Source: Cyanophora paradoxa CCMP329
Lineage: Eukaryota; Plantae; Glaucophyta
Reading direction: 5' to 3'
DNA: 64,000 bases
Assembly: GCA_004431415.1 (NCBI GenBank)
Contig: QPMI01000710.1
Location: 1-64,000, forward strand
Position 1 is the stretch's first letter; each line of letters opens with the position of its first letter. The translations under genes were made by a program, and so were the position numbers. Positions 1 through 20,317 of the stretch are shown here, piece by piece. The notes below the pieces were generated by a model. It was not told where the DNA came from, did no database searches, and was given only the letters and a program-made list of their open reading frames with translations.

Positions 1-1243
1 CTCGATATGCAAAGGTGGAAAACCCAGATGACCATATAGTTCTCTTGGATGCAAATAATCTGTATGGTTTTGCTCTCAGTTCAAGAACTGCCCATTGGCG
101 ATTTTCGGTGGGAAGATGTCACAGAGGCACTTAAAGAGACCCAGGACGAAGTGCCTTTATTGAAGTAGACCTGGAATACCCACAACTCTCACAGATCATT
201 ACGATTTTCCACTTGTAGTCAATAAAGAACATGTCACCACCGAAATGCTGGGTGAGTATCAACAAAACTACTGGATATCACAGGTGAGAAGATAAGCAAA
301 GACCCCAAACTCACAGCAACATTCTCACCCAAAAACTATGTGATTTCCCAACCTCTCTTGATCTATCTTGTGAGCAAGGTATTATAATAAGAAGGTTCAC
401 AGGGTTCTCTCATTTGCAACTCTGCATTCATGAAGAGTTTATATTGATCTAAATACGAAACTGAGGCGCCAATCTATGTCCAGATTCGAGAGTGACTTCT
501 TTAAAATTAATGAACAATGCAATCTATGGTAAATGCCTCGAATCATGCAGGGGTCGCTCTGTGGTAAGATTGCTAACAGTGAGAAACTCTGCAAGAAATA
601 TGCTGCAAGTCCACTCATCAAGGCAACCAATGTATTAAACGAAAATGCTGTTGCCTTGAGATGTACTCAAAGCATGTTCACTTAGATAAACCTGTTGCAA
701 TTGGTGCTTTTGTGCTGGATTTCGCGAAACTCCATAATAGCAGGTTCTTTTATGATGTGGTGAGGAGAACTTGGGAAACAGCAGAGCTACTATTCCATGA
801 TACAGATTCTTTCTGTCTACTGCTGCATACAATGATCTTAAATAATGAGATGAAGCGAATTTCTGAACACCTGGATGCAGTAATTATGATACTGCCACCC
901 TCTCTTGATAGGAGAAATCGCTTGATTCCAGGTAAATATAAAAAACGAGTTTCCCAATGCAAAGATTGTGGAGTATGTAGGTCTGAGATCGAAACTCTAT
1001 GCTTTCAGAACTGAGACCTTTGATAAAATAAAGATGTCTGGTACTTCCTCCAAAGAGGTTCACTTTGATGATTTCAAGAGATGCCTGTTTGAAGGCATCA
1101 CCAAAACAGTAGCAGTAGTAAACAAGCGAAGACAAGACCACAACCTATATGATTTGGAGAGCAGAAGGGTGGCTCTAAACCAACTCGATAGCAAAAGGAA
1201 GATATTAGACGATGGAATTCACAGCATTCCATTTGGGCTCTAA
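1..1243 (+). pseudogene. Protein-primed family B DNA polymerase, C-terminal half, multiply frameshifted
   Basis: Motifs recoverable across frames: LDANNLYG (from 46), LPIGDF, FIEVDLEYP, FFK-LMNNAIYGK (about 500-535), LLFHDTDSF (about 790-810), EYVGLRSKLYAF. The indels may be decay or assembly error. Confidence 0.88.
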
Positions 1244-1401: not shown

Positions 1402-1426
1402 TTATTATATGAGAGATAAGGTAAAG

Positions 1427-2827
1427 ATGCCTTCTACACAAATAGGATTGAGACAACCACCAAGAATTGTGAGAAAAGAGGCAATTGAAGATCGAGGGAA
1501 TATTCTGCCCATCACAGTTCCAGTGGAGGAGAAGAGCAGTCGAATATTAAAAAGATCAGAGATGGTCAAGCAATTAATCCCAGAGACACTCCCAGCTGAG
1601 ACAGCACCAAAAGAGTCGAAGATTGCTAAGAAGTTCTATGATCCCAGGACAGGCTACAAGGGATTTACTGCAATGAGACAGGAACTACCAGAGGAGAACT
1701 ACAAGAAGATGAGAGAATGGTATGATAAGCAGGAGGTTGTCCAAATTAATGCACCCACCCTATCTCGAAAGAGAGATCCCATGATTCCAATTAGGCAACC
1801 CCTTGATACCTATGTGATTGATCTGCTCTTCTTTCCTGCATACAAAAAGCAGAATGATGGTTATGATACATTTATGAGTGCAATGGAGTCAACCCTGAGA
1901 ACAGGGTTCATTATTCCAATGAGAGACAAAAGTGCTCTTACTACACTTGCAGCATTCAAGCAACTTGAACAGAGAGTCCCCAGACCAATTGTTCGCATTC
2001 AGAGTGACAGTGGAAGCGAATTTACCAATGTATTATTCACAGATTATTTGGGAACGAAATTCATTGAGCATCAACTAAGTGATGTTGCAGATCACAGAAC
2101 CCAAGGTCGAATTGAAGCCTTTAACAGACAGATCAAGAGATTGATCACAAACTACTGCATTGCAAATAATACTGCACGATTTTTTGATGTGTTGGGTGAT
2201 ATTGAGTATAATTATAATAATACCATCCACTCTGCAACCAAGAGAAAACCAGCAGAGACCACAGAAGCCCACTACAAAGAGATTGTGAGTATGGAGGATC
2301 AGAGGTTCAAGAAATCGATTGAGTATCTTGATGCTCTGAAACCTGGTATGTTTGTGAGAGTGAAAGTTGAAAAGAATCCATTTGCAAAGCAGGGAGTGAA
2401 TTGGTCTCGAATTGTTTATAGTGTGGAGGGCAGAGAGGGCTTCAAGTTCAGAATCAGAAGCCCCAGTGGTGAGATAGTTGATGGTAGATTCGCTTTTCAT
2501 GAACTGCTGCCCATTAAAGGTGTTGAGTATCATGAAACTCCCACAGTGGATGCTCTTGAACAGGCAAAAGAGGAAGCCAGGGTTGATTCAGCAATCAGAA
2601 AGGAGGGCATAGAAAAAGCAAGTGAAGTACCAAAAGAACCCCTCACAGAAGCAAGAGCACAAAAGAAGGGTAGAGTAGAGAAAGAATTAAAGAAGTTGAC
2701 CATAGCAGGAACCCAGAAATTATCAGAAGTTAACAGTCAGAGGTGGTATAATGACTTTTCAACCACCAAAGAAACATATACTGCACCCCAAACTCGATTT
2801 AATTTACGGAGTGGTCAGAGGAAATAG
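1427..2827 (+). CDS. Retroviral-type (rve) DDE integrase, Polinton-like
   Basis: Uninterrupted ORF with the catalytic triad in YVIDLLF, IQSDSGSEF and QGRIEAFNR, followed by YNNTIHSATKRKP. First ATG in a GTAAAGATG context is at 1427. Confidence 0.93.
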   Translation: MPSTQIGLRQPPRIVRKEAIEDRGNILPITVPVEEKSSRILKRSEMVKQLIPETLPAETAPKESKIAKKFYDPRTGYKGFTAMRQELPEENYKKMREWYDKQEVVQINAPTLSRKRDPMIPIRQPLDTYVIDLLFFPAYKKQNDGYDTFMSAMESTLRTGFIIPMRDKSALTTLAAFKQLEQRVPRPIVRIQSDSGSEFTNVLFTDYLGTKFIEHQLSDVADHRTQGRIEAFNRQIKRLITNYCIANNTARFFDVLGDIEYNYNNTIHSATKRKPAETTEAHYKEIVSMEDQRFKKSIEYLDALKPGMFVRVKVEKNPFAKQGVNWSRIVYSVEGREGFKFRIRSPSGEIVDGRFAFHELLPIKGVEYHETPTVDALEQAKEEARVDSAIRKEGIEKASEVPKEPLTEARAQKKGRVEKELKKLTIAGTQKLSEVNSQRWYNDFSTTKETYTAPQTRFNLRSGQRK

Positions 2828-2828
2828 A

Positions 2829-3071: not shown

Positions 3072-3259
3072 AGCAGAAGTTGAGAGAATCCAGAAAATCC
3101 TTGTCAATTTTTTATTTTGTTAGTGCCCGATCTCAACGGAATCTGATAGCCGCTGACGAGAGGATTCCGAATCTGTTTTCAGAATTGAAAACGGAGCAGT
3201 TGGTGAAGAGTTACCTGCGTTTATCGGTTGACTCAACTTGACTGTGAACTGCGCGCAAT

Positions 3260-3913
3260 CGCGAACCGTCAAGTATATATGCATATATATATACATATAT
3301 ACACTTTTTTACCAGAAATTCCGTTTGACCAAACCGAGATTACGGAGGTTTTGTGTATATATGCGGTATATATGTCGAGAGTTGTCTGTTGGATTTCCTG
3401 GGCTCCCTCTGGACATCAATCTTGTAATGATTGTTGTATTTGATACAAAACATCAATGGAAGTTGTATTCGATAGCGATGATGTACATGATTTTTGAGGC
3501 TGATAGAAAATATTAATGAGTTTTGAGGCTGATAGAACTTATGAATTGTTGTTGAGGCTGATAGATTGCAGAAGACTTTTTGATGATGCAGATAGAATTT
3601 CCAGATGCAGACATCTATGATTGTTGTATTCGATACTAAACTCTGGTCTTCCCTATTGATGAAAGACTCCGGTTATGACTAATTGTTGATATCTATATCA
3701 ACAATGAGTCGTCTTCGGATATCTACCTCAACAATGAGTCATAACTGATATCTATATCAACAATAAGTCATTACCTCCGAAAGAGTGCAACATATATACA
3801 CCATATCTACACCATACTTTTCGTGTGACATCGAACCTCCGAGTCGCCGACCGACCAATCCGCTATTTTGTGGTCAAAATGTATATATGCGCATATATAC
3901 TTGACGGTTCGCG
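3260..3913. repeat. Non-coding segment bounded by 23-bp perfect inverted repeats, with internal opposed arrays of about 30-bp units
   Basis: CGCGAACCGTCAAGTATATATGC at 3260-3282 and its reverse complement at 3891-3913. GAGGCTGATAGA at 3496, 3525 and 3554. Inverted GATATCTAxxTCAACAATxAGTC x3 at about 3688-3769. Confidence 0.85.
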
Positions 3914-4219
3914 TTACTACTGTCGGCATCACTTCACGTTACGACTGTGGGGCTGTCGGCATCTTCAAACGCTTGTATCTCACCACCAGATCATCACCTT
4001 GCAACCGTCGACATATCGCTGGAAAGCGCTTAAAAAGACCTACACGATGGTGCAGGTATCAAGTATATATACGTATATATTACATACAAATATTTCGAAA
4101 AAACGATTAATCGGCTACTTTCTACTGTAAGGAACATACAGTAAAATAATGCGAAAATACAGTAGCTACTGTTAAAAAAGCCATAATCTGGCGCACCATA
4201 CATCAGAAGTCCTGAATTT

Positions 4220-5761
4220 CTATACACTTCGAATAAATGCACCTGTGACATCCACTCTCATAGTTGGGGCATTTATATATACAAGTGGATAAATACGAAT
4301 ATATCTGGTTCTCAGAGGGTAGCCAATATAGAAAACGTCTCTAATAGAGGTTGGATACCCAGAACTGTATGAGACATCACCACTATTATGGGCATTATTA
4401 ATAGTTTCACACATGAACATTCTGTTAACACCTTCATACTTGATAAATGACCAGGAAACACCATCTTGTGAGGTTGCAACATTGAAGGTCTTAACAAAGG
4501 CATTGGTCACACCAGACCCATATGCAATTATAGATGCTACCTCATATATATATGGGAAGGATACTTGGAGATACTCAGTGGGAACACTCCATATCCCATC
4601 AGGAGCAGATGCATTTGCCTCCCAACCAGTTAATGAAGGTCTTGCTTTAAATGCCTCCCTTCCAATTTTTGATGATGAAGCAGTGAATGCACCATCTGAT
4701 AGAAGATACCAGTTAGCATCAATGGGAGGTATGTTATTCAGAGTGGATGATATATAGAACCTTGCAGGGTTCTTGATTTCATAATTTGCAACCAGTAAAT
4801 CACAGAGTCTATCAATCATCACAGTGTTTGCTGCTATATACATTTCGGTTGCATCTATCATATCTGGTATCTTAGAGGTATCATCCAGAGAGTTTACTAT
4901 GGTCTTTGGAAGTGGAACAGAGAGTCTATAATATCTTGCATATCCTTGGTCATCATTATATGGGAGAAACTCTTGCATCTTTTCCAGGGCTGAGAGTTCA
5001 CTTGCAGCCATCAACATATTAATTAATGGACTCCCAGAGGTCGAAGCAATCCATGAGAGAATGCCCCAGCTGTTGACATCTTCATAGGAATATCCCACAT
5101 TTGGGGCATCTGTTTCATTGACCTCACCACAGGATATACTGATCACAATTATATCATCATCATCATCATAGATCTTTTTAGCATGGCTGTAACCACATAC
5201 ACTGGGATTGTTGTTACCTGATATTGCACCATCAATTAGAGACATCCCATCATAGTTCACAGGTGAGAAGTAAGTAGGTGCAGCAGAGGTGGATCTTGCA
5301 GCAATCTTGCTGGGGATGGATTTGTAGGAATTATCATTGGTGATAAAGATGGGCTTCATACTCACAGTATCAAAACTTGTTATCACTACATCTTTTAGAG
5401 AGTCTTGAATGAGAGACTCACCAGTAACAGTGAGAATGGCTGTCTCCAATGGGGTCACATCATACTTGGTGTTGAAAAGGGCATTATCTATAATATTTCT
5501 GGGATTAGCAAAGATTAAAGGCAATTGATTGAGATAAGTGGAATGCAAATCGGTTGCAGTGAGTTTAGGTTCGTTTGGAAATTCGGGATTTTTCACATTG
5601 AGACCAATTGCAATAATCCCACCAGTGGATGTACCACTCACCAGGTCAACAAGATCTATTACTCTTTTTCCTGTTCGAGTTTCGATTTCTTTTAGCAATC
5701 TCGTAATAATTATACCACGAGCTCCCCCACCTGAGAGACTGAGAATTACACGAAGGGGCAT
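4220..5761 (-). CDS. Patatin-like phospholipase fused to a C-terminal F5/8 type C (discoidin) domain
   Basis: Patatin motifs LSLSGGGARG, GTSTG (GxSxG), SAAPTYF and DGA. Discoidin pattern EYLQVSF...FVKTFNVATSQDGVSW...PLRTRYIRIYP...MRVDV. Confidence 0.92.
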   Translation of the reverse strand: MPLRVILSLSGGGARGIIITRLLKEIETRTGKRVIDLVDLVSGTSTGGIIAIGLNVKNPEFPNEPKLTATDLHSTYLNQLPLIFANPRNIIDNALFNTKYDVTPLETAILTVTGESLIQDSLKDVVITSFDTVSMKPIFITNDNSYKSIPSKIAARSTSAAPTYFSPVNYDGMSLIDGAISGNNNPSVCGYSHAKKIYDDDDDIIVISISCGEVNETDAPNVGYSYEDVNSWGILSWIASTSGSPLINMLMAASELSALEKMQEFLPYNDDQGYARYYRLSVPLPKTIVNSLDDTSKIPDMIDATEMYIAANTVMIDRLCDLLVANYEIKNPARFYISSTLNNIPPIDANWYLLSDGAFTASSSKIGREAFKARPSLTGWEANASAPDGIWSVPTEYLQVSFPYIYEVASIIAYGSGVTNAFVKTFNVATSQDGVSWSFIKYEGVNRMFMCETINNAHNSGDVSYSSGYPTSIRDVFYIGYPLRTRYIRIYPLVYINAPTMRVDVTGAFIRSV

Positions 5762-5810
5762 CTTTACTTAACTCAAATTTAATAAATCTCTATAAGTAGA
5801 GTAAACAGGG

Positions 5811-8800
5811 ATGAGTTTCAATTATCCAGCAAACCTACAAACCATTCCCTCATCTGGAAGAGGGAAGACAGATAACAAACATGTGAATTTCGATAACTTG
5901 ACAGCCAGAGGGTCAATCTCAATTGATCACAGTGCAGATGAACCCTCAAAGACTCACCCAAGAGAGCATGCACTTTCAATAAACGAAATGGATCCCGAAA
6001 AAGAGGATGTGAGTGTTGCTTTCAGCATGGGGAATGTGAAAGCGAATCAAGTAGCCCAGATTAAAGCAACCAGGAGCAGACCAAGAAAACTGAAAACCAG
6101 TGGAACCCATCCAGATATTCCAACTCGATTCGATAGTGGAAGGTTGATATTCAATGTTCAAAATGAGAAGGGTGGGCATCAGAGTGGTTTAAGAATCTAT
6201 AATGAAGGATCAAATGCAATTGCACAAATTCCCGAAATATTACAGATAGCACCCCATGGAGAGACCAACAAAATCGAGTTCACTAACAATGTTTATCCAA
6301 GAGATATTGTGGCGAATTCGGCTTCTAATGCGCAATTCGGTTTCCAACTACCTGGTGATACAGCAAAGAATAAGGCGTCTATCACTGTCAACAGTAGCCC
6401 CACTCAACCAGTAACAATTCATTTACACCCAGACCTTGTCGAAATGGACAGGCACCTTTTACCTCTGGTAACCAACACCAAAGATCTTGGTATCAGAACC
6501 AGGCAATGGCGAAATATCCATGGAAGCAATGTCTATGCAAATGGAGAGAAACTTGTAAGTGAGAAGACCATAAGAGAGATCTTTGAATATTATGGACCTG
6601 TCCCAGTTCCCTTTCCTCTTCCATGGGATCCACCAGATTTAACACCAAAAAAGCAACCAGGAAGAGAGTACACAGCAGATGAGACAGTTCCTTTTGGGCA
6701 ACACATTGTGAGTTGGGAGCAGGTTCGCAATAAACCGATAATTGAACCAAGAAAGCAAATTGATGAGCAATATTTACCTCCTGAAATCGATATTTTGGAG
6801 CTGGACGAATACCAATTCGTTCCAGATGAGGAGGAGTATTTACCAGATGGTTTTGACCCACAGGAGTATGAATATGATCAATATGACCCCAATGAGGAAG
6901 AGTATTTACCAGATGGTTTAGATCCACAAGAGTATGAGTATGAACAGAATTATGAACCCCATGAGGAATATTTAGCAGATGGTCTCGAACCACCAGTTGT
7001 GGATTATGAGCAACCATATGAACCCCATGAAGAATTATTACCAGATGGATTTCGACCTGAGATTTGGGAGTTCTTCCCTGATTGGGAGCAGATCAACAAT
7101 AAACCAGCCAGATTTCCACCAGAGGATCACAACCATGACTGGGATGAGATCTTAGGTAAACCAGAGAAATTCCCACCAGAGGATCACAGGCATGACTGGG
7201 GTGATATTGATGGAAAACCAGAAGAGTTTCCACCAGAAGATCACAGACATACATGGAGCGAAATAGATGAACAACCAAAATTCGCATCAGCAGGTGATGT
7301 TTTCGACACCACACATGGTGTTACTCTCTACCAAAGTAATACCATACCAGAAAGATTACGATTAGATGAATATTATGTGAATCGTAAAGGGATTGATGCA
7401 GGCACCACAATGGAAGGTGAATTATACATCAGACCACCTACAAGAATGCAGATAATTGCAGCAGGCGGAAATTTCGGTTTGATGGACACCAAACCAGGTA
7501 TCTATTTAACCAGTTACTATGCTGATGACATCCCAATGACAGGAGGATTGATCTCTCTACCATCTGATCCAGTCAACTATGATGACAAAGATGCAGCAAT
7601 CCAAATTAATGTTACTGATGTGAGTGACTTAGATAGTTCAAGACCCAAATTAATATTCACCAGAGAAAGATTGTTACCCAATGCTCTCATTGGAAATCGA
7701 GATGACTACAAGAGATGCGAAATATCATGGATAAAAACGAATTATAATGGTGGAGTGGGTGAGGGTCTCTTAGAAATCAATCAGAGGGCAGCAGCAAAGA
7801 ATATTCACAATGAGACCATATCCAGAGTGGTAACAGAGGATTACCTGCAAGCCCAGAACTACATAGATGAAACAGAACTGAATACAATTATTGCAGGTAT
7901 TAATATTGGTGTGACAGGGGATTACCTTCCTCTCACAGGAGGGATTATTGATGGAACAGTAACAGCATGCAACTTCTTTGTCCATACTGAAAGCAATCAA
8001 ACCTTTCCTGTGGTTCACCCAGGAGGTGAATATGAGATCCCAGATGACCCATCTATTATGCCCATTAAGATTGACCTACCTTCTGATTATGTTGGAAGGG
8101 GTGAACTGAAAACGATCTCTTTCACAGGAGATTATAATGATCTCCTCAATAAACCCACCCCATCCAATTTACACCCTGTTGCATACTCAGGTAGTTTCCT
8201 TGATCTGAATAATAGATCACACACCCACACAAAGGCAGAAATTATAGATTTTGCACACACTCACACCAAATCCCAGATAACAGATTTTGCTCACTTCCAC
8301 ACCAGAGCAGATATCACGAATTTCGCTCACACTCATTTTAAATCTGAAATCACAGATTTCGCACACACTCACACAAAGTCACAGATAACAGATTTTGCAC
8401 ACACTCACACCAAAGGAGAGATTACAGACTTTGCTCACACCCATGTAAAGAGTGAGATAACAGATTTTGCACACACTCACACCAAAGGTGAGATTACAGA
8501 CTTTGCTCATACTCATACTAAGTCTCAAATTACAGATTTTGCTCACACACACCTTTGGGGAGATATTACAGATCGACCTACTCTTGATCCATTCACAGCA
8601 ACCACTATTAGAGCCAACAACACGATGTATGTAGGATCAGGTCAGATTGTAGAACCAGCAGGACCTATGTTTGAAGAAACATGGTTCTTCCACAATTCGC
8701 AGAATTACTTTGATAAAACCTTACTTGTTCGTGGAAATGCATATGCAAGGAATTTCTATGCTATGAACCCCTCAAATAATGCGACCATCAGTCGATGCAT

Positions 8801-9140
8801 TACAGAAGCAGATCTTTCCAGTCAACTCAATGCATATTTTAATGGGAAAATTCAAGCAGGTAAGTATGTTTACACTACTCCTGTTTTAAATTACAATAAT
8901 CTATATGTGTTCAATCTTACTATCTATTTTACCAATGCCTTTGCTTCTCCTCCTGTTGTTACAGCAACTGTAAGGCATGAAGGACAAGAACCAAATTATC
9001 AAGTAACTCCCGTCATTTTTACTGTGAACCTGTTGAATGTTTACAGTAACTATTTCACTTGTGAACTTTTCACTGATCCATATGCAATGAATAATTCATC
9101 CAAAACTGTAACAATCCATTACATTGCTGTCGCAATTTAA
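5811..9140 (+). CDS. Large fibre/spike-like protein (1109 aa) with acidic repeats, HxH repeats and a lectin-like C-terminus
   Basis: Phage-fibre-type motifs LLPLVTNTKDLG..QWRNIH, WxxIxxKPxxFPPEDHxH x3, FTGDYNDLLNKP and HTHTKSQITDFA x10. C-terminal FTNAFASPPVVTATV resembles H-type lectin/gp53-like tips. Confidence 0.8.
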   Translation: MSFNYPANLQTIPSSGRGKTDNKHVNFDNLTARGSISIDHSADEPSKTHPREHALSINEMDPEKEDVSVAFSMGNVKANQVAQIKATRSRPRKLKTSGTHPDIPTRFDSGRLIFNVQNEKGGHQSGLRIYNEGSNAIAQIPEILQIAPHGETNKIEFTNNVYPRDIVANSASNAQFGFQLPGDTAKNKASITVNSSPTQPVTIHLHPDLVEMDRHLLPLVTNTKDLGIRTRQWRNIHGSNVYANGEKLVSEKTIREIFEYYGPVPVPFPLPWDPPDLTPKKQPGREYTADETVPFGQHIVSWEQVRNKPIIEPRKQIDEQYLPPEIDILELDEYQFVPDEEEYLPDGFDPQEYEYDQYDPNEEEYLPDGLDPQEYEYEQNYEPHEEYLADGLEPPVVDYEQPYEPHEELLPDGFRPEIWEFFPDWEQINNKPARFPPEDHNHDWDEILGKPEKFPPEDHRHDWGDIDGKPEEFPPEDHRHTWSEIDEQPKFASAGDVFDTTHGVTLYQSNTIPERLRLDEYYVNRKGIDAGTTMEGELYIRPPTRMQIIAAGGNFGLMDTKPGIYLTSYYADDIPMTGGLISLPSDPVNYDDKDAAIQINVTDVSDLDSSRPKLIFTRERLLPNALIGNRDDYKRCEISWIKTNYNGGVGEGLLEINQRAAAKNIHNETISRVVTEDYLQAQNYIDETELNTIIAGINIGVTGDYLPLTGGIIDGTVTACNFFVHTESNQTFPVVHPGGEYEIPDDPSIMPIKIDLPSDYVGRGELKTISFTGDYNDLLNKPTPSNLHPVAYSGSFLDLNNRSHTHTKAEIIDFAHTHTKSQITDFAHFHTRADITNFAHTHFKSEITDFAHTHTKSQITDFAHTHTKGEITDFAHTHVKSEITDFAHTHTKGEITDFAHTHTKSQITDFAHTHLWGDITDRPTLDPFTATTIRANNTMYVGSGQIVEPAGPMFEETWFFHNSQNYFDKTLLVRGNAYARNFYAMNPSNNATISRCITEADLSSQLNAYFNGKIQAGKYVYTTPVLNYNNLYVFNLTIYFTNAFASPPVVTATVRHEGQEPNYQVTPVIFTVNLLNVYSNYFTCELFTDPYAMNNSSKTVTIHYIAVAI
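6820..7060 (+). repeat. Coding tandem repeat, about 22-aa acidic units (EEEYLPDGxxPxxxxYxQxYxP) x4
   Basis: GAGTATTTACCAGATGG and variants recur every 63-69 bp or so. Confidence 0.85.
8220..8579 (+). repeat. 36-bp coding tandem repeat, HTHTKSQITDFA x10
   Basis: Directly visible in both DNA and translation, with synonymous divergence between units. Confidence 0.95.
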
Positions 9141-9159
9141 CTATTTGATTAATATAAAG

Positions 9160-10113
9160 ATGACCTCTCTATTAGAAATCCCAAACTATGAACTTGCAGC
9201 CAAATCACTGCACAGCACCTCTCATGGAGTAGTTGATTCAACCCCTGGGTATATTTGTACTGAAACTTCAAGTAATACCTCTTTCACAGAGAATAATATA
9301 CTCAGAGTCAAAGAAATTCGATGTGATAGGAATGGAGGCAAGATAAGAACCACAGGAATTATTATCTCGAATAAAAATCAGGTTCAAGCAGGTCAAGTAG
9401 TCCCAGATTCAGCAATATATGATAATGTAGGTGGATTTACCACAGCACAGATAGTTTCTTTTGGTAACACAAGTAATACTTCCGCTCTTGTAGTCAAGAG
9501 TGGAGGAGCATACTTTGGAGAGGCATTAAAGGTGAATGGAACAGTAACAGCATCCATACTAAATGCTGGAAGTGGAATGTTTGAGAGTCCAATAAATTTT
9601 GAGGGTGGATATAATGCGAGTAGTTTTTCAGTTGGTGTTGGTGTCTTTTCCACAATGTTAAACACACCTGAAATTGAATCATCGAATGCACTCAATATCA
9701 AGAGAAATGCAGTGGTTACAGCAACCATAAACAATGTTTCCCCTTCAATAAATCTAATTAAATATCTGAAAGCTCCTCACCCTCGGTTTTGTATTGTAAA
9801 TTATTCAACATCAGCAGTTACTGTGGGAACCACATCAACAGCAAGAAGATTCGCTTTTAACAGAACTCTTGTGGATGCAAGCAATAATATCACATTATCC
9901 ACAGGCACCTTTACAGCACCTGTGTCCGGAATTTATAGATTCTTCTTCATTGTTCAAATGTCAACAGCTTCATCAACAGGGGAGTGTAGAGTTGCATTTA
10001 GAAAGAATGATTTGGCTCTTTCCCTCAATCGGTTCAAGAATTTTCAACTTACAATGGAAGGCGAAGTGTTCATATGGAGGCTTCTTTTGCTGTATATGCG
10101 AACGAATTTGTGA
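9160..10113 (+). CDS. Fibre paralogue 1: shared N-terminal module plus C1q-like head (probable frameshift near the 3' end)
   Basis: N-module PGYICTE..SF...ILRVKEIRCDRNGGKIRTT..VVKSGGAYFG. C1q signature FNRTLVD...GTFTAPVSGIYRFFF. Confidence 0.78.
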   Translation: MTSLLEIPNYELAAKSLHSTSHGVVDSTPGYICTETSSNTSFTENNILRVKEIRCDRNGGKIRTTGIIISNKNQVQAGQVVPDSAIYDNVGGFTTAQIVSFGNTSNTSALVVKSGGAYFGEALKVNGTVTASILNAGSGMFESPINFEGGYNASSFSVGVGVFSTMLNTPEIESSNALNIKRNAVVTATINNVSPSINLIKYLKAPHPRFCIVNYSTSAVTVGTTSTARRFAFNRTLVDASNNITLSTGTFTAPVSGIYRFFFIVQMSTASSTGECRVAFRKNDLALSLNRFKNFQLTMEGEVFIWRLLLLYMRTNL

Positions 10114-10226
10114 ATGTTATACAAACCTGGACATCGTCCATGCAATATGATGCTACAATACAAGGTATTACCTGTTTTGGGGGCATCTCATCAGTAGATT
10201 ATAAACTTTTTGTTGGGAATTTATAG

Positions 10227-11247
10227 ATGGCTACCCAAATTGCAGTTCCTGTTTTCTGTTATGCAGCACCTAAATTGCATCAACTGAACCACACAGTTAC
10301 AGATGCTATTCCCGGGTTTATTTGCACAGAAACCACAGGAGCAGATTCGTTTACTCAAAATTCGATTATCAGATGCAAGGAGATTCGATGTGATAGAAAT
10401 GCTGGAAAATAAGAACCACACAATTAATCGTAAGTAACAAGAATCAGGTGTTAACAGGTGGTGTAGTTGCTGATGCAGCTATTTATGATGATGCAGGTGG
10501 GGTGACCACACCACAGATTGTTACTTTTGATGGGACAGAAAATAATGCAGCACTTGTAGTTAAATCAGGTGGAGCATGGATAGGTTCGGAGCTTTTGTGA
10601 ATGGAACACTCTCAGCTGCAAACGTCTCAATTTCAGGCCAAACGACATTTACAGGTGTTGTGAATGCAAATGGTGGTCTTTTTGTTCCTACTTATACAGT
10701 CCCTGTGATGACCACAACCACAAAGATTCAAACACCTGAAATAGATACAGGAGCAAATGTAGATCTCATTCTGAAAGGCAATAGCACAGAAGTCGCACGA
10801 ATTGATGCAGGGGGTCTTACAATCGCAGCAAACTTTTATTTGAAGCAAGAAACCCAACCTCGATTTTGTGTTGGGTTTGGTGTAGCAACAAGAAGTGGAG
10901 TATATGGGCGTCTTACTAATTGGTTGCATGAATTCTTTGATAATACCAACTCATTTGATGTAGTAGAAGGGAAATTCACAGCGCCTATAAGTGGAGATTA
11001 TAGATTCTCTCTTAATTCTTATAGTATTGTTACCTCATCTGTGAGTGTAGATCTGAAAGTAAATGATCAGAATGTTTCAACAGAATTCAATTTCAGGGTA
11101 AACAACTCACAAACAGTAACCAACAAAACAATCATTTTGAGCGCAATACTCAGACTTGGAGCCGGGGATAATGTCTCTATTTATGCTGTTGATACTTCCA
11201 TTTCAGAATTCACAACGTTTAGTGGCGAATTGCTGAGCATAATTTAA
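10227..11247 (+). pseudogene. Fibre paralogue 2: shared N-terminal module plus C1q-like head, split by frameshifts
   Basis: 10227-10412 gives PGFICTE..IIRCKEIRCDRNAGK. Homology to paralogue 1 continues in another frame through 10413-10575. 10576-11247 ends in FDVVEGKFTAPISGDYRFS...LRLGAGDNVSI...FSGELL. Confidence 0.8.
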
Positions 11248-11266
11248 TTTCTACAAGTAGTTTAGA

Positions 11267-11530
11267 ATGTCGAATATATACCAAGTAGTTCTGACTGATA
11301 CCGAAAAGTTGGGAATGGAATATTGCGCTGCTTCTGTTCAGGACTGGATTGATAATGCTGCCCACAACAGGGCAAGAATCGCAATTGATGAGATTGTTCA
11401 GAAAGAGATCCAATCTTGCATTTCATCAGGAGTTCAAATACCTACCTCAAAGGAAGCCATTGTATTACAGGCATTCCAAAGGGGAACTGTAAAGAAAGGC
11501 ATTGAGTATAACAATGTCACAGAAGAGTAG
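11267..11530 (+). CDS. Small fibre-associated protein (87 aa), possible assembly chaperone
   Basis: Clean ORF directly after the C1q gene. The pattern LTDTE..MEY.A.SVQDWIDNA..NRARIA.DEIV recalls, from memory and unsearched, small hypothetical proteins that follow fibre genes in aquatic tailed phages. Confidence 0.6.
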   Translation: MSNIYQVVLTDTEKLGMEYCAASVQDWIDNAAHNRARIAIDEIVQKEIQSCISSGVQIPTSKEAIVLQAFQRGTVKKGIEYNNVTEE

Positions 11531-11568
11531 TGAACATTATTTTTCTTTCCTTCTTAGTAAAAGAAGCA

Positions 11569-12413
11569 ATGGGTGAATATAATCGAGTTCAACTTCCAAT
11601 ATATTCCCTTGGATCCCCTGCTATGCACTTTCGCCAGCATGAAGTTAATGATGAGGTTCGTGGTTTAGAATCCACAGAGAGACCCAATTCCAATGGTAAC
11701 TCTTTTGATAAGAATTCGATTATTCGAGTTAAAGAACTGAGAGCAGACAAGAATTCGGGTGTGGTTAAAACAACTCGACTCCTTGTCTCAAATGCGAACT
11801 TCTTCCAACCCACTAATGGAGGTCCTGATGCTTACAGTGTAGACCTGAAAGCCCTCGATTTTGACAAGAATTCTGCTGCTGTAACTGTGAGATCAGGTGG
11901 AGCATTTATTGGTGGTGGTTGCAGAGTTTCAGGTCAACTCTCCTCATCAATTGCATACAATGATGTCCAGATACTCTTGAACAGAATGTTGAAGACCCAC
12001 AACGAATTCGATTATATATACCAGTTGCACAACAGCCAATTATTCAATTTTACCAAGGTTATACTGTCACACTTGAAAACTCTGAATTGATTGAAGGAAC
12101 CAAAAGAGTAATGAGAGGGCTGGTCATTCCTTCTGCAATGCTTTCTTTATGTAGAGCCAACAATAACCAGCCAGGTCACAGATACAATTTCAGTGTTCAA
12201 GGATATGATCATTTCGGCACAGGGTTCTGTGTTTATAATAACAATTTCACCTATGATCTGTTTGTTACAGATATTGGAAAATATACAATTACAGTTATGG
12301 GTATCAGAACAGATATAGCTGCTGTCTCAGCTCTAAGAGGTGTTACTCCTGATACTCTTTCTCAAACAGGGTTTTACCAGGAACCAGATGTGATTGATAA
12401 CCCAACCCCATAA
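11569..12413 (+). pseudogene. Fibre paralogue 3: shared N-terminal module plus non-C1q head, frameshifted around 11970-12090
   Basis: GLESTE..NSFDKNSIIRVKELRADKNSGVVKTT..VRSGGAFIG. The C-terminal part YDHFGTG...GKYTITVMGIRTD parallels paralogue 4. Confidence 0.75.
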
Positions 12414-12436
12414 ATTATATATTACTTTAATGTAAA

Positions 12437-13264
12437 ATGGCTGCCCCAGTAGAGCGAATTATTACACCCCAACTCTCATTAGCAGCACCTGCAAATCACG
12501 TTTTGCAGCATGCTACTTTTGATGATGTAGAAGGTCTCCAATCCACAGAAGTACAACCTACAATGAATACCTTTGGTTCCACCCATAAACTGAGATTGCA
12601 GGAACTCAGATGTGATAAAAATAATGGTATAGTTAAGACAACGAAACTCCTTGTGACAAATGCGAACTTTTCTGCCCATTATGGAGACCCAGACAGTTAT
12701 GGTGATCCTCTTTCTACTTATTCTTTTGAATCTCGGTCGGGAGCTATTAACTGCAAAACGGGGGGAGCATATATTGGTGATGGTCTTCGGATTGGTGGAG
12801 CTGTTGGTGCGCCTCTTTTCGTAAATGATCAACCCAATCCCATTGATCCCAACACCAGAATTCGCACCTATGTCCCCAGTATGAATGCACCATACATTAT
12901 AAAGATCTTCCCAATTGTTGTGAATGAGCAGACATCAGTAGTTGATTCTCTTGTTGAGATTGGCGACCACTACAAGGTGGTTGTCGATATCCCACCAGAT
13001 GTTTATGCTGTTTGTCAAGTAGAGGGTGGAACCCCAAATATTGCAGTTGTGATCACTCCATATGATAATTTCGGAATTGCTTATCATGGAGTAAATTTCG
13101 GTCTTGAAGATTACCAGTTCTTGGTGAGAGCCACCAGATTTGGTATCTACAAATGCATTCTCTATGCTGAGAGAACCGATGCTATTGCAAGACAGAATAC
13201 ATATGCAGAATATTACGGCACAAATCGATACTTCCCCATTTTCGGGCAGGATACTGCTCCATAG
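12437..13264 (+). CDS. Fibre paralogue 4: shared N-terminal module plus non-C1q head, intact
   Basis: GLQSTE..NTF...LRLQELRCDKNNGIVKTT..KTGGAYIG. C-terminal TPYDNFGIAY...GIYKCILYAERTD. Confidence 0.8.
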   Translation: MAAPVERIITPQLSLAAPANHVLQHATFDDVEGLQSTEVQPTMNTFGSTHKLRLQELRCDKNNGIVKTTKLLVTNANFSAHYGDPDSYGDPLSTYSFESRSGAINCKTGGAYIGDGLRIGGAVGAPLFVNDQPNPIDPNTRIRTYVPSMNAPYIIKIFPIVVNEQTSVVDSLVEIGDHYKVVVDIPPDVYAVCQVEGGTPNIAVVITPYDNFGIAYHGVNFGLEDYQFLVRATRFGIYKCILYAERTDAIARQNTYAEYYGTNRYFPIFGQDTAP

Positions 13265-13291
13265 AAATCTCAGGTATATATAGAGAGAGGG

Positions 13292-13564
13292 ATGGATGAT
13301 AAAACAAAGAAATTCATAGAATCTGCAATGATGGTTCATGGTGATGCTAAATTCGATTACAGTGAGACAGTCTATAAGAAAGCACAAGAGAAGGTCTCTG
13401 TTAGATGCCTTAAATGCAACAAGATCCTGCAAACCTACCCATTTAATCATGTAAGGGGAAGTGGATGCAGAGAGTGCAACAAGAAATCCTCTCATGCATA
13501 TAGAAAAAAGACTACATCAGGAATTGTGATAGATGATAAACCAGTAGTTTTATATTTCGATTAG
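13292..13564 (+). CDS. Zinc-ribbon protein (DUF723-like module)
   Basis: FIESAMMVHG..FDYSETVY......V.VRCLKC.........H..GSGCREC pattern. Confidence 0.7.
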   Translation: MDDKTKKFIESAMMVHGDAKFDYSETVYKKAQEKVSVRCLKCNKILQTYPFNHVRGSGCRECNKKSSHAYRKKTTSGIVIDDKPVVLYFD

Positions 13565-13710
13565 ATCTTTGAGAGAGAAATGAGAATCTTTCCCCATTTT
13601 CCCTTGGTGATTATGCATGTATCAAAGCAGTTGGGACAGGTCTTGTGGTAGTGCAACAGAATGATATCCACCAACTCATAAGGTAGCACTCTTGCTAAGA
13701 TGATTCGCAT
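13561..13710 (-). CDS. 49-aa ORF with an F-box-like start (LPYELVDII) and CPNC
   Basis: MRIILARVLPYELVDIILLHYHKTCPNCFDTCIITKGKWGKILISLSKI fills the intergenic gap. Confidence 0.35.
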   Translation of the reverse strand: MRIILARVLPYELVDIILLHYHKTCPNCFDTCIITKGKWGKILISLSKI

Positions 13711-13750
13711 TCTACCAATCGCGTTTTTAATTTTTCTAAATTATTCATAA

Positions 13751-14152
13751 ATGAATACTCATCGAGGCTTCCATGTGATGCTGGATTACAAATTCAGAAC
13801 CCAATTAGCAGTAGGAGTGGAAAACTTGGAGACAACAACCAGGTGGTTAATGCAGTTCTTACAAACTATTATTCAAGAGCAAGGTATTCGAGTAGTTCAC
13901 AAGCATTGCGAGATTTTCGATGGTGGTATTTCTCCTCCTGGTTTTGCAATGGTTCTTCTGCTGGATGAGAGCCATTGCACTGCTCACTGTTACTCAAATG
14001 AAGGTATGTTGGCGATTGATATATTCAGTTGTGGATTAGAAGCAGAGCGAAAAACCACGAGAGTATCTCATGAGATAGATGAGAGAATAACAGGTGTGTT
14101 TTCAGGGTTGGAGAAATCGGAGAAACATAGAGTATTGCGATTTCCGAGTTAG
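13751..14152 (+). CDS. speD: Bacterial-type pyruvoyl-dependent S-adenosylmethionine decarboxylase proenzyme family
   Basis: GFHVMLD...F..G....GFAMVLLLDESHCTAHCY.NEG..AIDIFSCG, including the ES self-cleavage site; 133 aa. Confidence 0.88.
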   Translation: MNTHRGFHVMLDYKFRTQLAVGVENLETTTRWLMQFLQTIIQEQGIRVVHKHCEIFDGGISPPGFAMVLLLDESHCTAHCYSNEGMLAIDIFSCGLEAERKTTRVSHEIDERITGVFSGLEKSEKHRVLRFPS

Positions 14153-14210
14153 TTGACACTGAGAAATTCAGAATTTCAGATGGTCTTACTGAAAATGGTC
14201 AGATAATCGG

Positions 14211-14648
14211 GTGTGACACCTATTTAATTGACTGTGACGCCTCTTTAATTGACTGTGACGCCTGTGACGCCTGTGACGCCTACTTTCAAACTTTTTAAAA
14301 TTTTCAAAAATGACAGACTTCTGAAAACAGCCGTCACAGCCGTCACAGGCGTCACACCCAATTAAAAATGGAATCTCTTTCTCTTACTGAGATTTTCGAG
14401 AATATATTCTTGTCTTACTGAAATCCGTCTTGTGACACCTCTGACACCTACAAAACACTATCCATTAATCAACCTTTTTGAAAATGCGAAGTTGTCTTAC
14501 TGGATATCGTCTGCAATTTCGCTGTGACACCTAATTTAATTGAGTGTGACGCCTGTGACGCCTGTGACACCTACTTTCAAACTTTTTAAAATTTTCAAAA
14601 TGACAGACTTCTGAAAACAGGCGTCACAGCCGTCACAGGCGTCACAGA
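14211..14648. repeat. Duplicated module of about 130-145 bp: opposed 9-bp iterons flanking an AT-rich core
   Basis: (TGTGACGCC)x3 - TACTTTCAAACTTTTTAAAATTTTCAAAA...CTGAAAAC - (G[G/C]CGTCACA)x3, at about 14211-14356 and 14523-14647. TCTTACTG occurs six times in 14185-14700. Confidence 0.9.
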
Positions 14649-14759
14649 CATTCCACCCCTCTTACTGACTTTCTCAAAAACAAAACTATCTCTTACTGAA
14701 TATCATTTGAATACTACCTGTCACACTTGAATTCATTTATTCTGTTTTATAGAACATAT

Positions 14760-15015
14760 GCAATCTAATCGATTGTTCAATTGGAGACCATGCAACTCTG
14801 TGACACTTTTTCGATCTAAAATATGCATCCGCAATCTCATCGATTGTTTAATTGGACATAATGCAGTTCCGATATATTCCAATAGAAAATCCCGCAATCT
14901 AATCGATTGTTTAATTGGAGATAATGCAACTCTGTGACACTTTTTCGGTGCAAAAATGTACATCAGCAATCTCATCGATTGTTCAATTGGACACAATGCA
15001 ACTCTGGGACATTTT
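14760..15015. repeat. Subterminal tandem repeat, 4 units of 63-72 bp
   Basis: GCAATCTMATCGATTGTTYAATTGGA....ATGCA at 14760, 14831, 14894 and 14966. Confidence 0.9.
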
Positions 15016-15328
15016 TTGCGTTTTTCGATACAGAATGGGCGGTGGTCTACTTCAATACCAGAGAGATATATCGAGTTTATGCGAATTTATGCAATTTAAT
15101 CGCGATTATATCGATCTTTAAGTAGTTTAATGCAAATTAATCGCAGTTTTATATGTAATCGACAAAGAACATAATCAATCGATATAAGATCAATTGATTC
15201 AATCGTAAATATGCATAAAGTTAAACGCGTTTTTCATTTTTAATACAAAGTTTGCATTAATTTATACAAAGTTTGCATAAAAAGTTAAAGAATTTAATCG
15301 ATAAATACGTATTTTAGTATTAATTTTG

Positions 15329-15413
15329 ACACATATGTATAAACTTATTTAAATCCAGGAGCGGAGCGCGAAGCGCGAAGCGGAGGGATTTAAATAAGTT
15401 TATACATATGTGT
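15329..15413. repeat. Terminal hairpin: 28-bp perfect stem with a 29-nt purine-rich loop
   Basis: ACACATATGTATAAACTTATTTAAATCC (15329-15356) pairs with 15386-15413. The loop is AGGAGCGGAGCGCGAAGCGCGAAGCGGAG. Confidence 0.95.
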
Positions 15414-18400
15414 GGATGAGACGGAGGAGATGAAAGCGGTCGAAAGCGTGCTTAATGACTTGCCGGAGGAAGCATCAACGAACCAGATTCTTCTCAAGGT
15501 GCTCCTTTTAATCACTCTCATCTGTGAGCATCGCTCTACGACTTTGACAATATTAATTGGTCATTCGCTTCAGATGCGTAATGCTATGTTGAATTGCCGG
15601 ACAATGTCTAAACAAGAAGCTGCATTGTACTGCCTAGGTGCGCCTCTTGCTCTTCGTGAGAGAATGAGCTTTGCAATTGCCAACTGCAGCCGCTTGATAG
15701 GTCTTCCACTGTTCTTTTCATCCCGTTCTTCATGCTCGGTAGCTGCATACCTTCCTGGAAAACGAGTGAGGCGGCTGAGGGACAAGCGGGAGCTCGAATT
15801 CCGCATGGATCGCAATCCAGAAGATCAAGACACGTGGGCTGACGATCAAGTGGATTATTACATGGCGCGCACTCGAGATCCAGCAGGTGAGGTTTTTAAT
15901 CACATTATAACTCTTCCAGCTGTACACGCTGAGCTTTGGTTCACAATTGCAACCAGGAGCAAGATCAGTCTTCGAGAACTTGACCTTCATGCAATACATG
16001 AATTGGTTCAATCTTCACTTCGGGGGCAATGGTCCTATCGGCGCTGGACCAGATTCAAACCTTGCTTCCGAGAACATTGATGCCGAGGCTCTTGAAGAAG
16101 GAGGAGACCTCGATTGCTGGGAACCAAATCCTCTGTGGTTCGATGTGGAGCATCGGAAGCAGCAACCACAATCAACCGCGCCACTGCGCCCCAAGGTTCC
16201 TGGCTCCGGGTAAATATGATTTGATATTATGTCTATACGTATCAGCCCTGAATAGGTTTAATCAATCGTATGCGCTACACAGTGTATGCCCACGGACAAA
16301 ATTGATGCCTCCTTTTCGGATTCATGAACTCCAGCAGCGTCGACGCCCTCGGACAGTCCGAGTGCGAGTGCCCAAGGACAGTGATCCTGACAGTTTGTAC
16401 AGTCTCCTGTTTATGCACGTCCCCTTTCGAAACGAACTCCATGACTTACTGGGCGTTGAACGCGAGGAGGACGTCACTCCCCAGATTATTGCAGCTGCAG
16501 TCGTCCGTCACCGTGCCACCATTGACTACAACATCCAGTTCACCCATTGCCATATGGCAGCTCGTCTTGGACGATCCCTTGAAAAATTTGACAAGGATTC
16601 CCGTCTCGCTGCTGCAGCTGGCAAGGATCTCCACCCGGATCCGGACGCACAGTCAATTACGTCAACTGGCACAGAGTCATCTGCAGCTCCACTCTGTCCC
16701 CCTGCTTCTGATGCATGTGTCATGACTACTGCAGACCTTGAAGCTCCCGAACCCAACAATCAAGTGCATGCGAGTGCTTCGATGGCAGTCGACTGCAATC
16801 CGTGCAACGATTTTGATACGGGAATTGTCACCGGTACCTGCAGCATCGCTGATGCTCCCTGCTCAAGCATAAGCATGCCTCCAGCTGCAGTAGCTCCAAC
16901 ACCCGGTGTGAACCTGCAAGACATTGATTCTATGTCACTGGATGTGCTGGAAAGGATGCTCAAGCCCAAACAGCGGGAGATGATGGTGGCTGTTCGTCAA
17001 ATGACCAGTCGCCTTGAATCACATTATGCAACACAGTCAGCGTAAGTCCCGTTTACATATGTGCATGCGCATTCAAGTTTCCTCAGACATAAACATTTTC
17101 TCTAGGCACAATGCGGCAGTGGCTGCCAACTCGGGGATGCCTGTTTGTCGGCAGGTCCAACCCCCTCCTGTCACTTCCAAGCTCCCAATCCACGTGGCAT
17201 GTGTTGGACCTGGCGGGACAGGTAAATCGCTATTGATCAAGACCATTGTGAAGTACATGCTTCAATGGAGTCGCGATCATGCCAACATGCAACAACCGTG
17301 TGGAAGTGGCGGCGTGCTGCTCATGTCGTGGACAGGCGTTGCTTCGTTCAATATTGGGGGCGGGACTGTATCGTCTCTTCTGGCGTTTGGAGCGCCTCCC
17401 AAGCCCGGTGAAACAAAGAGCACGTTCTATCCTCTATCCGGACAGCGGGCATGCCAGTTCCAAGCAAAGTATCGCGATGTGGAACTCATCATTATCGACG
17501 AAATCAGTTTCGTAGGTGGCAAGAATTTCTCACGGATCAACCAACGTCTGCAAGAGATCTTTCAGAGTGACGCCCCCTTTGCGGGCAAGTCTGTTATCTG
17601 CTTTGGCGATTTCTTCCAGCTACCTCCCGTGAAGGAGAAGAGAATTTTTAATGTACTTGAGCCACGTATGTGGCGTACTTTCCGATACGAAGATGATTGC
17701 GTGGAGGACAATCATCTGTGGTTGTCCTTCTTTCATCCTATCTTCCTTGATGAAGTAGTTCGACAAGCTGGCGATACAATGTGGAGAGACACTTGTCTTC
17801 GTCTGCGAGCTGGGAAATTCAGTGATGCAGATCAGCGCCTTATCCTTTCAAGGTACAATTCCAGTTCCAAGAGTGAATTCGAAGGGCTCGAAATATTTAC
17901 TACATCCACTCTGCACTCAGGTCGGCCAATCCGAAGGAGAACAAGCACGGCCACGCGCAGCTGGCAGAAGAACTCAAAACCACCGTCTGGCAGAACGCAC
18001 TACGTGTTTTTCCATGCAACAAGGACGTTGCAGCGTACAACCGAGCTCGCCTGCAAGCCACCTCTCGTCGTTATTTGGCCCCTATCATCACGCTCGAGGC
18101 TTTCGACGAGGGAGAATATGACAAGATCTCAAAGACGTGCAAACCTGCCGATCCAGTCGATGTAAGTAATTATATAAATTCCAGCCTTGCTGTTATTAAT
18201 GCGTGCTTATCAATGCCGGTTTTAGAATAAACAGGGCGAATTGTTATCAGCCAAATTCACATTTTGCCTGGGCTCTCGGGTGATCATGGTCCTGAACGAG
18301 GATACTCACGACGGCCTCGTCAATGGAGCTCTGGGCACATTGGTGGGGTGGGAATTTGATGGACCGGTCCCATCAACCACTTCACACATTCGCTTGCTCG

Positions 18401-20317
18401 ACAAAAACGCACCATCGGCACTGTTTGTTGCATTCGATGATGAGAAGGTCGGTGCCAAGCGTGGACGAGTGAAAGTAAATCTCGCTGGTGTGGATTATCA
18501 GGCTGTACGCATCGAGCCTTCTGAGCGGGACATCTCTAATGAGCCTGTTGCACATGCAGCACAGCGGACAACAGCAACTCCAGCAAACCAGCAGATCCAG
18601 CCTCCTCTTGACATCACCCCGAAGCCGTCAGCTGCCAGTTCAACTCCATCAAGAACACAGTTCCCTTTTCGACTGGCATGGGCTGTAACTGTTCACAAGT
18701 GCCAGGGTCTAACACTACCAAAGATAGTGGTCGACCTGGCTGCTGTCTTTCAGTACAACATGGCGTACGTTGCATGCAGCCGAGTGCGTTCGTCGGCCGA
18801 TATTATTTTCACCAATGTTCTCCGAGATCCCAATTGCAACCGGCGACGACGAGGACAGCATCATAAACGCGGGTTTATGGCTGCTATGCCAACTGCTGTG
18901 ATGTGCTCCAGCAGTGAGGATTCGGATGCATCCCTCAACGCTAGCGCTGCTGCATGCACAGCTGGCACCAGTTGTGACCGCTGGCTGTATTTTGCACCCT
19001 CTGCTGTTGACCTGCGGGAGAATGACCGGCTACGTGCACTATCAGCTACCATTGGCGTACCAACAGACAACCTCACGAAGCCATGGGGCACTTCTAGGTT
19101 TCCGACCGTGAAACCCCAACAAGTGATCGATAAACAGCGCAGCGATGCAGCTGCACTCGCAGCCCGCCGTACTCCATCAAAATCTTCAAGGTCAGCTGCA
19201 TCTACGAATGCCGTTGGTGAAGTCCCACCGCCATCACCCCGGACTCCCAAACGCAAACGTGACGATGCATCTGCACGTGCACGTTCGTCGACGTCATCAG
19301 CTGCAGTACTGGCCGACCAAACCGGCGCCCTCAATGTCGCATCCCCAAAAACCCGCCTACCACTCCCTGCAGCTGTGAGGAATCTGGATTTTGCGTTTTC
19401 CCAGGCGTCGACATCCTGCCCTGCGCATGCGCATGCGAGCCCTCCGGAGCCTGCATTTGGGGAGAATGTAGCCACGGCCGCAGAATCCTCTGCATGCGCA
19501 GCTAGCACGCAGATTCTGACTCAACCATATGTGCCCCCATCTGCGCGTTGCGTTGACATCATGAGGTCCCGCCTGATGACGATGGCGTCAACTCAGACTT
19601 TGCCCCCTATTTTCATGCCTTCGAATCTGGTGCCTGCCAGGTACGCTCTGTTCTTGGCATTATATATTGCGAAATTCGAATGAGCTAATATTTGAATCGC
19701 ATATGTACATTTTTTATATATAGTAATACTGGACGTGGTCGCTGCATGTTCCTGTCCATCATTGACAGCTTAATTTCGGAGGGTACTGCACCATGGCCAT
19801 CCTCCGTGCGGATCCGGAATGTCGACAAGTGCACTTTTGCGGATCGCCTGCGGAACGAAATCGTGGACTACATGTCATCGATTACCGCACATCATCCATA
19901 CTTTGGACTACTTTGCTCATCTGTTGTGCCTGACGTTCCTGACGGACATGCCTCACCCGATGCGCTGCAACAATACGTCAACCGAATGCGAGATCCCACA
20001 GTTTATGGTAAATATTAATATGCATCGACATTTGTCGACGTCACATTTATTAATTCTGCTTCGCAGCGACCAGTCTGGAGGTCGCTTGTTGCTCGGCCTA
20101 TTTAGGTCGCCCCATTCTGATTTTCTTCGAAGATAGAAGCCCCAGCCGCCCTTCCCCTTTTATTCATACCGGCACTACCGGAACACGTTACAGCCCCCCG
20201 ATCCTAAATTATCCTCGGCCTTTGTGCCTCCTTTACCATGGCATTTTCCACTGCAATGGTACCCTGACCTCTAGCGGTAGCCATCATTATTCTGGTTTGG
20301 TCCAGCGTACACTGTAG
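15414..20317 (+). mobile_element. Helitron-like RepHel 3' portion: PIF1-family helicase plus C-terminal OTU-like protease domain, intron-containing, 5' end cut off by the virus
   Basis: RTMSKQEAA..LGLPL..SSR (RepHel linker). PIF1 motifs GPGGTGKS, IIIDEISFV, GDFFQLPPV, QFPFRLAWAVTVHKCQGLTL and YVACSRV. OTU-like GRCMFLSI..LRNEIVDYM..YVNRMR..HHY, stop at 20315-20317. Confidence 0.8.

Follow-up and report, generated by a model that had tools for sequence, protein, structure and literature searches.

Results

Layout of the array and its shared module

The window analysed in this work is a stretch of 64,000 nucleotides (nt) of Cyanophora paradoxa CCMP329 (assembly GCA_004431415.1, contig QPMI01000710.1, positions 1 to 64,000 of the forward strand). 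Close to its left end, inside what is likely an endogenous Polinton-like virus (PLV), four tandem, co-oriented genes beginning at 9160, 10227, 11569 and 12437 opened with a homologous N-terminal module of about 120-125 amino acids (aa) and continued into heads of different types. The array was tightly packed (spacers of 19-38 bases), behind a long fibre-like gene and near a patatin-discoidin lipase, and we interpret its products as probable short trimeric attachment fibres of the virus. The features of the array were as follows:

9160..10204, + strand: fibre gene 1 (about 348 aa), composed of the shared N-module, a short shaft and a C1q head; frame breaks at 10021 and 10178
10227..11247, + strand: fibre gene 2 (about 340 aa), composed of the shared N-module, a short shaft and a C1q head; frame breaks at 10405 and 10587
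11267..11530, + strand: open reading frame (ORF) of 87 codons inside the array, between genes 2 and 3; unrelated to the module genes
11569..12413, + strand: fibre gene 3 (about 281 aa), composed of the shared N-module and a gene-4-type beta-sandwich head; frame break at 11966
12437..13264, + strand: fibre gene 4, 275 aa, intact; N-module at residues 1 to about 125, head at about 150-250; predicted homotrimer
12437..12616, + strand: N-terminal part of the module (about 60 aa, on gene 4), with invariant residues; candidate docking tail
12617..12829, + strand: second half of the module (gene 4 residues about 61-131); probable intertwined beta shaft in the predicted trimer, ending with the motif GG..IG.GLRV.G

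Identity of the module between gene pairs was 34-58%, with shuffle z values of 23-65. A module profile, built partly from rows of the window itself, matched five pieces of the six-frame translation at an expectation value (E) of ≤1e-17, which corresponded to the four genes (the module of gene 2 being split in two); beyond them no match below E 0.67 was obtained in the window. No transmembrane stretch was found in the window pieces of the array genes (maximum 19-residue hydropathy 0.7-1.25). The 87-codon ORF gave nothing above the curated family cut-offs of Pfam and PHROGs and is a candidate adaptor or chaperone.

Short-read contigs at least 90% similar to the gene starts at 9156, 10227 and 11537 ran upstream into other sequence (one per run at 9156, three to five at 10227 and two at 11537); the spacers or neighbouring genes at these points may differ between copies of the element. 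Summed contig depth was higher over the modules than over the heads of genes 1 and 3, an observation that was not used, since depth cannot rank parts.

Reading-frame breaks

An earlier note, made from the sequence alone, had described four tandem ORFs with the same module. The module was borne out, but not the clean ORFs: only gene 4 was unbroken in the window, and five breaks were spread over genes 1-3. Each of them was a one-base gap beside a short homopolymer run, and at all five the missing base was present in short-read contigs of three out of three DNA-type runs. At the first four breaks the whole covering contig depth carried the extra base in each of these runs, and the break at 11966 was filled by 1075/3369, 780/2891 and 117/179 of the covering depth, respectively. 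A 730-nt short-read contig across gene 1 displayed no substitutions and two gaps, and another of 1291 nt spanning genes 1 and 2 displayed 12 substitutions and four gaps. Runs presumed to be of RNA contained pieces only and were left aside. When the breaks were read as X, no in-frame stop was left in the array genes. Because contigs of all three runs carry the extra base beside homopolymers, the five breaks are likely errors of the long-read consensus or assembly; damage confined to the present copy of the array could also have caused them. Assembly artefacts are known at multi-copy viral inserts (PMC10120064).

Two types of heads

The heads of genes 1 and 2 matched the C1q family (Pfam PF00386) with 25.2 and 35.1 bits, above the cut-off of 23.7, in agreement with the two C1q-like heads that the earlier note had recognised. 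Compared with solved structures, a profile of the family combining the module with C1q retrieved C1q-domain trimers (E 1.6e-19 to 1e-3) in the head region only. The heads of genes 3 and 4 were homologous to each other (25% identity over 117 aa, E 3e-4, shuffle z 9.1) and displayed no homology to the C1q heads (shuffle z 0.2-1.8), thus representing, as had been proposed, a different type; no Pfam match was obtained for them. The model of the gene-4 head was a beta-sandwich, with a predicted confidence (pLDDT) of 52-70. Its top rows in the VIA structure comparison, at Z 5-6.2, belonged to fibre tips of phages and to trimeric lectins of the H type (for 2ccv, Z 6.2, rmsd 3.1 and 87 aligned residues; for 7eea, Z 6.2, rmsd 2.3 and 69 aligned residues), all of them below the Z of 8 that chance reaches in this comparison. 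With Foldseek the best matches of the gene-4 head had E values of 0.1-0.3, among them one of 0.15.

Relatives, conservation and predicted trimer of the module

The module had no family match in Pfam, PHROGs or NCBIfam and none among the PDB sequences, so that it is not a named domain, as the earlier note had suspected, and no known non-structural domain was matched in it. An HMMER scan of 1.84 billion representative proteins yielded seven module matches, every one at the N-terminus, and the last word-index search yielded nine, again always N-terminal. The heads on the seven HMMER matches included C1q (P0004, P0005 and P0007), the gene-4 type (P0002) and a domain shared with phages (P0006). All relatives found had a module of equal size, and none of them showed a recognisable second docking domain. 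In the 17-row module alignment, whose rows include several near-duplicates, fourteen positions were invariant, among them H21, H25, E38, R53, E56, R58 and D60; within the first 60 residues or so, H21, H25, G33, E38, F46, R53, E56, R58 and D60 were invariant in 16 of 16 aligned rows.

Searches for related loci elsewhere were negative. No such locus appeared in scans of viral contigs (with the module alignment, the integrase, the gene-4 family and P0004 as queries) or in two scans of metagenome contigs, and tblastn of phage genomes with the module family returned three chance-level matches at E 8. Longer fused forms (488-2000 aa) were absent from the 7992 candidates scored, which is weak evidence. 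A BFVD match at E 7e-5 was set aside for its rmsd of 21. The VIA comparison of the low-confidence module model gave no match at Z ≥2, a result that is uninformative and not evidence of a new fold.

Trimer modelling covered gene 4 among the four array genes. Three copies of this protein, modelled with ESMFold2, reached a score of 0.62 against 0.00 for the best of three controls, with at least 70% contact agreement between runs and a partner pLDDT of at least 51. In the calibration, which was made with two copies and not with three as in the gene-4 job, 21 of 30 proteins whose solved structure is a pair of one chain attained the same mark, and none of 23 single chains did so; for eukaryotes the figures were 17/29 and 0/30, respectively, but 1/7 for pairs without an older solved relative. 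Confident contacts were located at residues 57-80, 94-131 and 156-246, and those between chains were dense in the second half of the module. Together with the C1q heads, this predicted homotrimer was consistent with the fibre-type architecture that the earlier note had put forward. The note had also treated the module as a single anchor. According to the trimer model, this '120-aa anchor' is probably composed of two parts, an unplaced N-terminal part of about 60 aa and an intertwined shaft, and a docking tail, if any, could lie only in the first part, which is a candidate for that role.

Probable head exchange in a sister family

A sister family with the same module was found in the EukProt set of Cyanophora paradoxa, with at least 29 accessions: eight of full length, one without the module start, one with the head only and 19 stubs of 66-140 aa. 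The comparison was made with the six full-length types, two near-copies of P0006 being left out. Their modules were 83-94% identical, and their six heads belonged to three unrelated classes. The boundary was sharp: of the last 20 module residues 15-20 matched, as against 1-8 of the 20 that followed; the motif GG..IG.GLRV.G was the likely point of head exchange. The head of P0006 was the phage-shared domain (phrog_34132, E 6e-44). Four sister types carried C1q heads (P0007, P0014, P0028 and P0026) that were at most 31-39% alike, the C1q match of P0026 lying below the Pfam cut-off. In P0022 the head after the module was 145 aa long and matched nothing in Pfam or PHROGs; it is a fourth, unnamed tip class. 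Grouping of the six C1q-bearing modules as one clade was rejected in a 15-row tree (p-AU 0.0001). Judging from these sequences, tips have likely been exchanged on a constant module by recombination between copies of the element. No two of the 29 sister accession numbers were adjacent (the closest were 15 apart), which suggests that each element of the sister family carries one such gene.

Loose short-read ends at 9521 and 11936 were considered as possible new heads and were interpreted as the same shaft in diverged form.

The element surrounding the array

From base 1 to about 15400 the GC content was 38-43%, as compared with 72% in the host part, and 1987-2950 related short-read contigs per DNA run were obtained over 1-15600 in three runs. 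The element is thus integrated, multi-copy and unlike the host in composition. Besides the array, it contained:

1..1243, + strand: family-B DNA polymerase (PolB)-like gene, 3' part, in several frames; the element continues to the left of the window
1409..2827, + strand: rve integrase, ORF of 472 aa (E 0.002, below the Pfam cut-off)
4220..5761, - strand: fusion of a patatin-like phospholipase with an F5/8 (discoidin) domain; fusion named in PMC12220804
5811..9140, + strand: long fibre-like protein of 1109 aa; phage tail matches, PTR-like repeats and a weak C-terminal H-type lectin
13292..13564, + strand: small treble-clef zinc-finger-like ORF; DUF4379 just under the cut-off
13751..14152, + strand: S-adenosylmethionine decarboxylase (AdoMetDC)-like gene; common among glaucophyte PLVs
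14180..15413, no strand: repeat-rich likely right end, with a perfect inverted repeat of 28 bp (15329-15356 / 15386-15413) at its close

The gene at the window start, with several frameshifts, is presumably PolB-like on account of its polymerase motifs; none of its five pieces matched a PolB family in Pfam. Integrase, PolB-like pieces, lipase and long fibre together agreed with the small integrating eukaryotic virus-like element postulated in the earlier note. The patatin-discoidin fusion is likely an entry lipase. The long fibre ended 19 bases upstream of gene 1 and, as judged with the module profile, did not contain the shared module; the gene-4 family, tried as a relative of this protein, gave no match to it (probability 0.3). 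The long fibre presented at least nine His-rich repeats of 36 nt (12 aa) and acidic repeats, at 8167-8573 and around 6700-7260, and joints of short-read contigs in these repeats suggest that their number differs between copies. AdoMetDC is listed in 66 of 156 glaucophyte PLVs (PMC12220804, Table S6); the main text of that work lacks the word 'decarboxylase'.

The inverted repeat at 15329-15413 was located at the step in GC content from 40% to 52%, where a PIF1 region begins. Folded as DNA, it formed a hairpin of -30.6 kcal/mol (z -11.9) with a 29-nt purine-rich loop and a small inner hairpin, which could be the terminus of the element or the end structure of a neighbouring helicase element. 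A PIF1/UvrD helicase gene in pieces (15430-19683, 52% GC) started abruptly at this hairpin, and the region is likely a Helitron-like element. Between the integrase and the lipase, a 1.4-kb non-coding region (2830-4220) contained nested inverted repeats (32-bp arms at 3260-3291 / 3882-3913, 94%) and 29-bp direct repeats, and might be an internal origin or the old junction of two elements. In the intron-rich DNA of 72% GC, a host gene at 35271-37814 displayed a weak match to MurJ, the lipid II flippase (E 0.004), which fits an alga whose plastid retains a peptidoglycan wall. Together with the named homologues of the array, which are from Cyanophora paradoxa, this gene suggests that species or a near relative as the likely host.

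Discussion

Array products as probable attachment fibres

The explanation that we favour, with a probability of roughly 0.65, is that the array encodes short trimeric attachment fibres of an endogenous PLV, with the module on the particle and the tip on a surface ligand. Three chains are predicted to intertwine through module residues of about 65-131, the shaft, and through the head, and the shaft would project the head outward from the particle. The first 60 residues or so may fold on a virion partner, for which the penton, the capsomer, the 1109-aa fibre and the 87-aa ORF are candidates. Tips would then bind glycans or wall proteins on the cell surface, after which the lipase might breach the membrane. 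The earlier note had further suggested that alternative tips might dock on one capsid site and recognise several hosts or helper giant viruses. Sequence comparison suggests that the module acts as a constant socket, that the array arose by old tandem duplications, giving a C1q pair and a lectin-like pair with no internal shuffling, and that in the sister family one gene slot would take alternative heads by recombination at the module end.

Several observations weigh against this explanation or against parts of it. No capsid, penton or ATPase gene was found within the window, where the element is cut by the left edge and capsid genes would be expected beyond it, and for this reason the virion location is proposed by analogy. 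The trimer model of gene 4 was of low confidence (pLDDT 51-53) and left residues 1-56 unplaced, monomer models of the module were unusable (pLDDT 30-54), and the second half of the module resembled T4 gp12 (1pdi) at E 0.5, which is not significant. The likeness of the modelled gene-4 head to H-type lectins is likewise weak and not significant. As regards recombination, the earlier note had proposed that the shared 5' modules could allow head shuffling; a constant module with exchanged heads was indeed observed in the sister family, but inside the array there was no sign of exchange. Here modules paired with like heads (genes 1 and 2 at 58%, genes 3 and 4 at 45%), with supports of 86/84 and 80/80, respectively, in a module tree of long branches (neither grouping starred), and the 5' module DNA was 53-65% identical, with longest exact runs of 8-14 nt. 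With that much divergence, the four modules do not indicate that they are being shuffled with one another at present. The sister genes, for their part, were predicted on an assembly prone to error, and their viral context is assumed, their neighbours lying outside the data; gene conversion of the module could also give near-identical modules on unlike heads.

Other explanations

An assembly in which the short fibres are carried by the 1109-aa long fibre, by the 87-aa ORF or by one another instead of by the penton, either branched or through an adaptor, is unlikely, though the least so of the alternatives. Multi-tailspike clusters of phages offer an analogy. The long fibre lacks the module and nevertheless lies immediately upstream of gene 1, the array has a small ORF in its interior with spacers of 19 and 38 bases, and five fibre types would seem many for one vertex site. 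The equal size of the module in all relatives, in which no second docking domain was recognised, argues against such an arrangement.

Somewhat less probable still are trimers that act inside the cell and not on the virion, for instance by binding particles or the factory of a helper giant virus, with a metal-binding or enzymatic module. The invariant His21, His25, Glu38, Arg53, Glu56, Arg58 and Asp60 (16/16 rows) would suit a metal or ligand site equally well, and no capsid partner was seen in the window; the gene context, however, is that of an attachment and entry block, all head types identified occur at fibre tips or in extracellular trimers, and no enzyme family of Pfam or NCBIfam matched the module.

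Finally, an array that has decayed within a dead element, with three of the four genes as pseudogenes and a repertoire without function, would account for the five array frameshifts and the several in the polymerase-like gene, but it is very improbable and largely refuted for the family, given that all five gaps were filled in contigs of the three DNA-type runs and no in-frame stop was left, even if the present single copy could be damaged.

Comparison with known fibres

The adenovirus fibre consists of an N-terminal penton-binding tail, a shaft and a trimeric knob, and the receptor-binding fibres of phages combine a constant N-terminal part with a variable C-terminal head and a sharp exchange point. 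The array resembles the former, here by prediction, in the tail-shaft-head order, the trimeric state and the presence of multiple fibre types in one genome; in contrast, its genes had no match to adenovirus fibre families, and its heads are C1q or lectin-like. With phages, the module family has in common the constant N-terminal part, the variable C-terminal head and, in the sister family, the sharp boundary between them, as well as two head domains, phrog_34132 of the sister family and phrog_15750 of the C1q type; the likeness of the second half of the module to T4 gp12-type fibres is weak, and the array differs in belonging to a eukaryotic integrating element and in a module without significant phage match. 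Trimeric heads of the C1q/TNF type (C1q, cerebellin, adiponectin, C-terminal part of BclA) were matched by genes 1 and 2 and six relatives, whereas the array has neither a collagen stalk nor a signal-type hydrophobic stretch, and its C1q is fused to a new module. Two fibres per penton are reported for avian adenoviruses (via PMC12220804), and a short triple beta-helix is contained in T4 gp12 (PMC5537660; PMC3004832).

The element type is already known, because glaucophyte PLVs with the same gene set have been catalogued (PMC12220804). Among 156 of them, Table S6 of that work lists integrase in 85, PolB in 49, lipase in 89, penton in 97 and ATPase in 139. In common with the present element they have the rve integrase, PolB, lipase and AdoMetDC, and both a PTR-PTR-H_lectin long fibre and a patatin-discoidin fusion are named for the group. 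PLV fibres, including two per penton, are in print; most of the fibres in that work are long proteins built of repeats and accompanied by an S74 chaperone, and short fibres made of module and head go unmentioned there. In PgVV-14T, a PLV fibre (Ltf) and a lipase were detected in purified particles (10.1101/2022.07.28.501842), and in Tetraselmis PLVs a tail fibre and a discoidin (FA58C) protein lie within the structural block (10.1101/2025.10.09.676808). A fibre with a lipase or discoidin in the structural block is therefore common to these viruses and the present element; they have one long fibre per genome, whereas here a long fibre is accompanied by four short paralogues on a common module. 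The likeness of these fibres to those of the array is one of description, with no sequence relation shown.

The term 'C1q' did not appear in PMC12220804, supplements (both) and main text as available, or in the available main text of PMC8502044, and 'fiber' or 'fibre' was absent from the accessible parts of two preprints of 2026 (10.64898/2026.10.13.758929 and 10.64898/2026.06.19.733378). The literature search, with subscription papers and bioRxiv supplements outside its scope, gave no description of the module or of C1q-tipped PLV fibres. The element type and modular virus fibres were already known.

Meaning for Polinton-like viruses

Phages and adenoviruses already show the principle of an anchor with a variable tip, and the present case extends a known kind. 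Mosaicism below the level of the gene, reported for replicases (preprint 10.64898/2026.10.13.758929), was seen here in attachment proteins. The case bears on how PLVs choose their host cells and on whether a giant virus is needed for entry. A constant module, a sharp exchange point and at least six tips in one species provide a compact set of proteins that can be expressed to test receptor specificity, and this set serves equally for the question of what binds the capsid vertex. A tentative extension, which we consider possible but doubtful, is that the socket of about 125 aa is a standard interface for tips from phage and C1q pools, with two strategies of diversification side by side: four fixed tandem tips as against one slot that would trade tips between integrated copies at the socket end. 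If that were true, the host genome would be a library of tips for the virus population.

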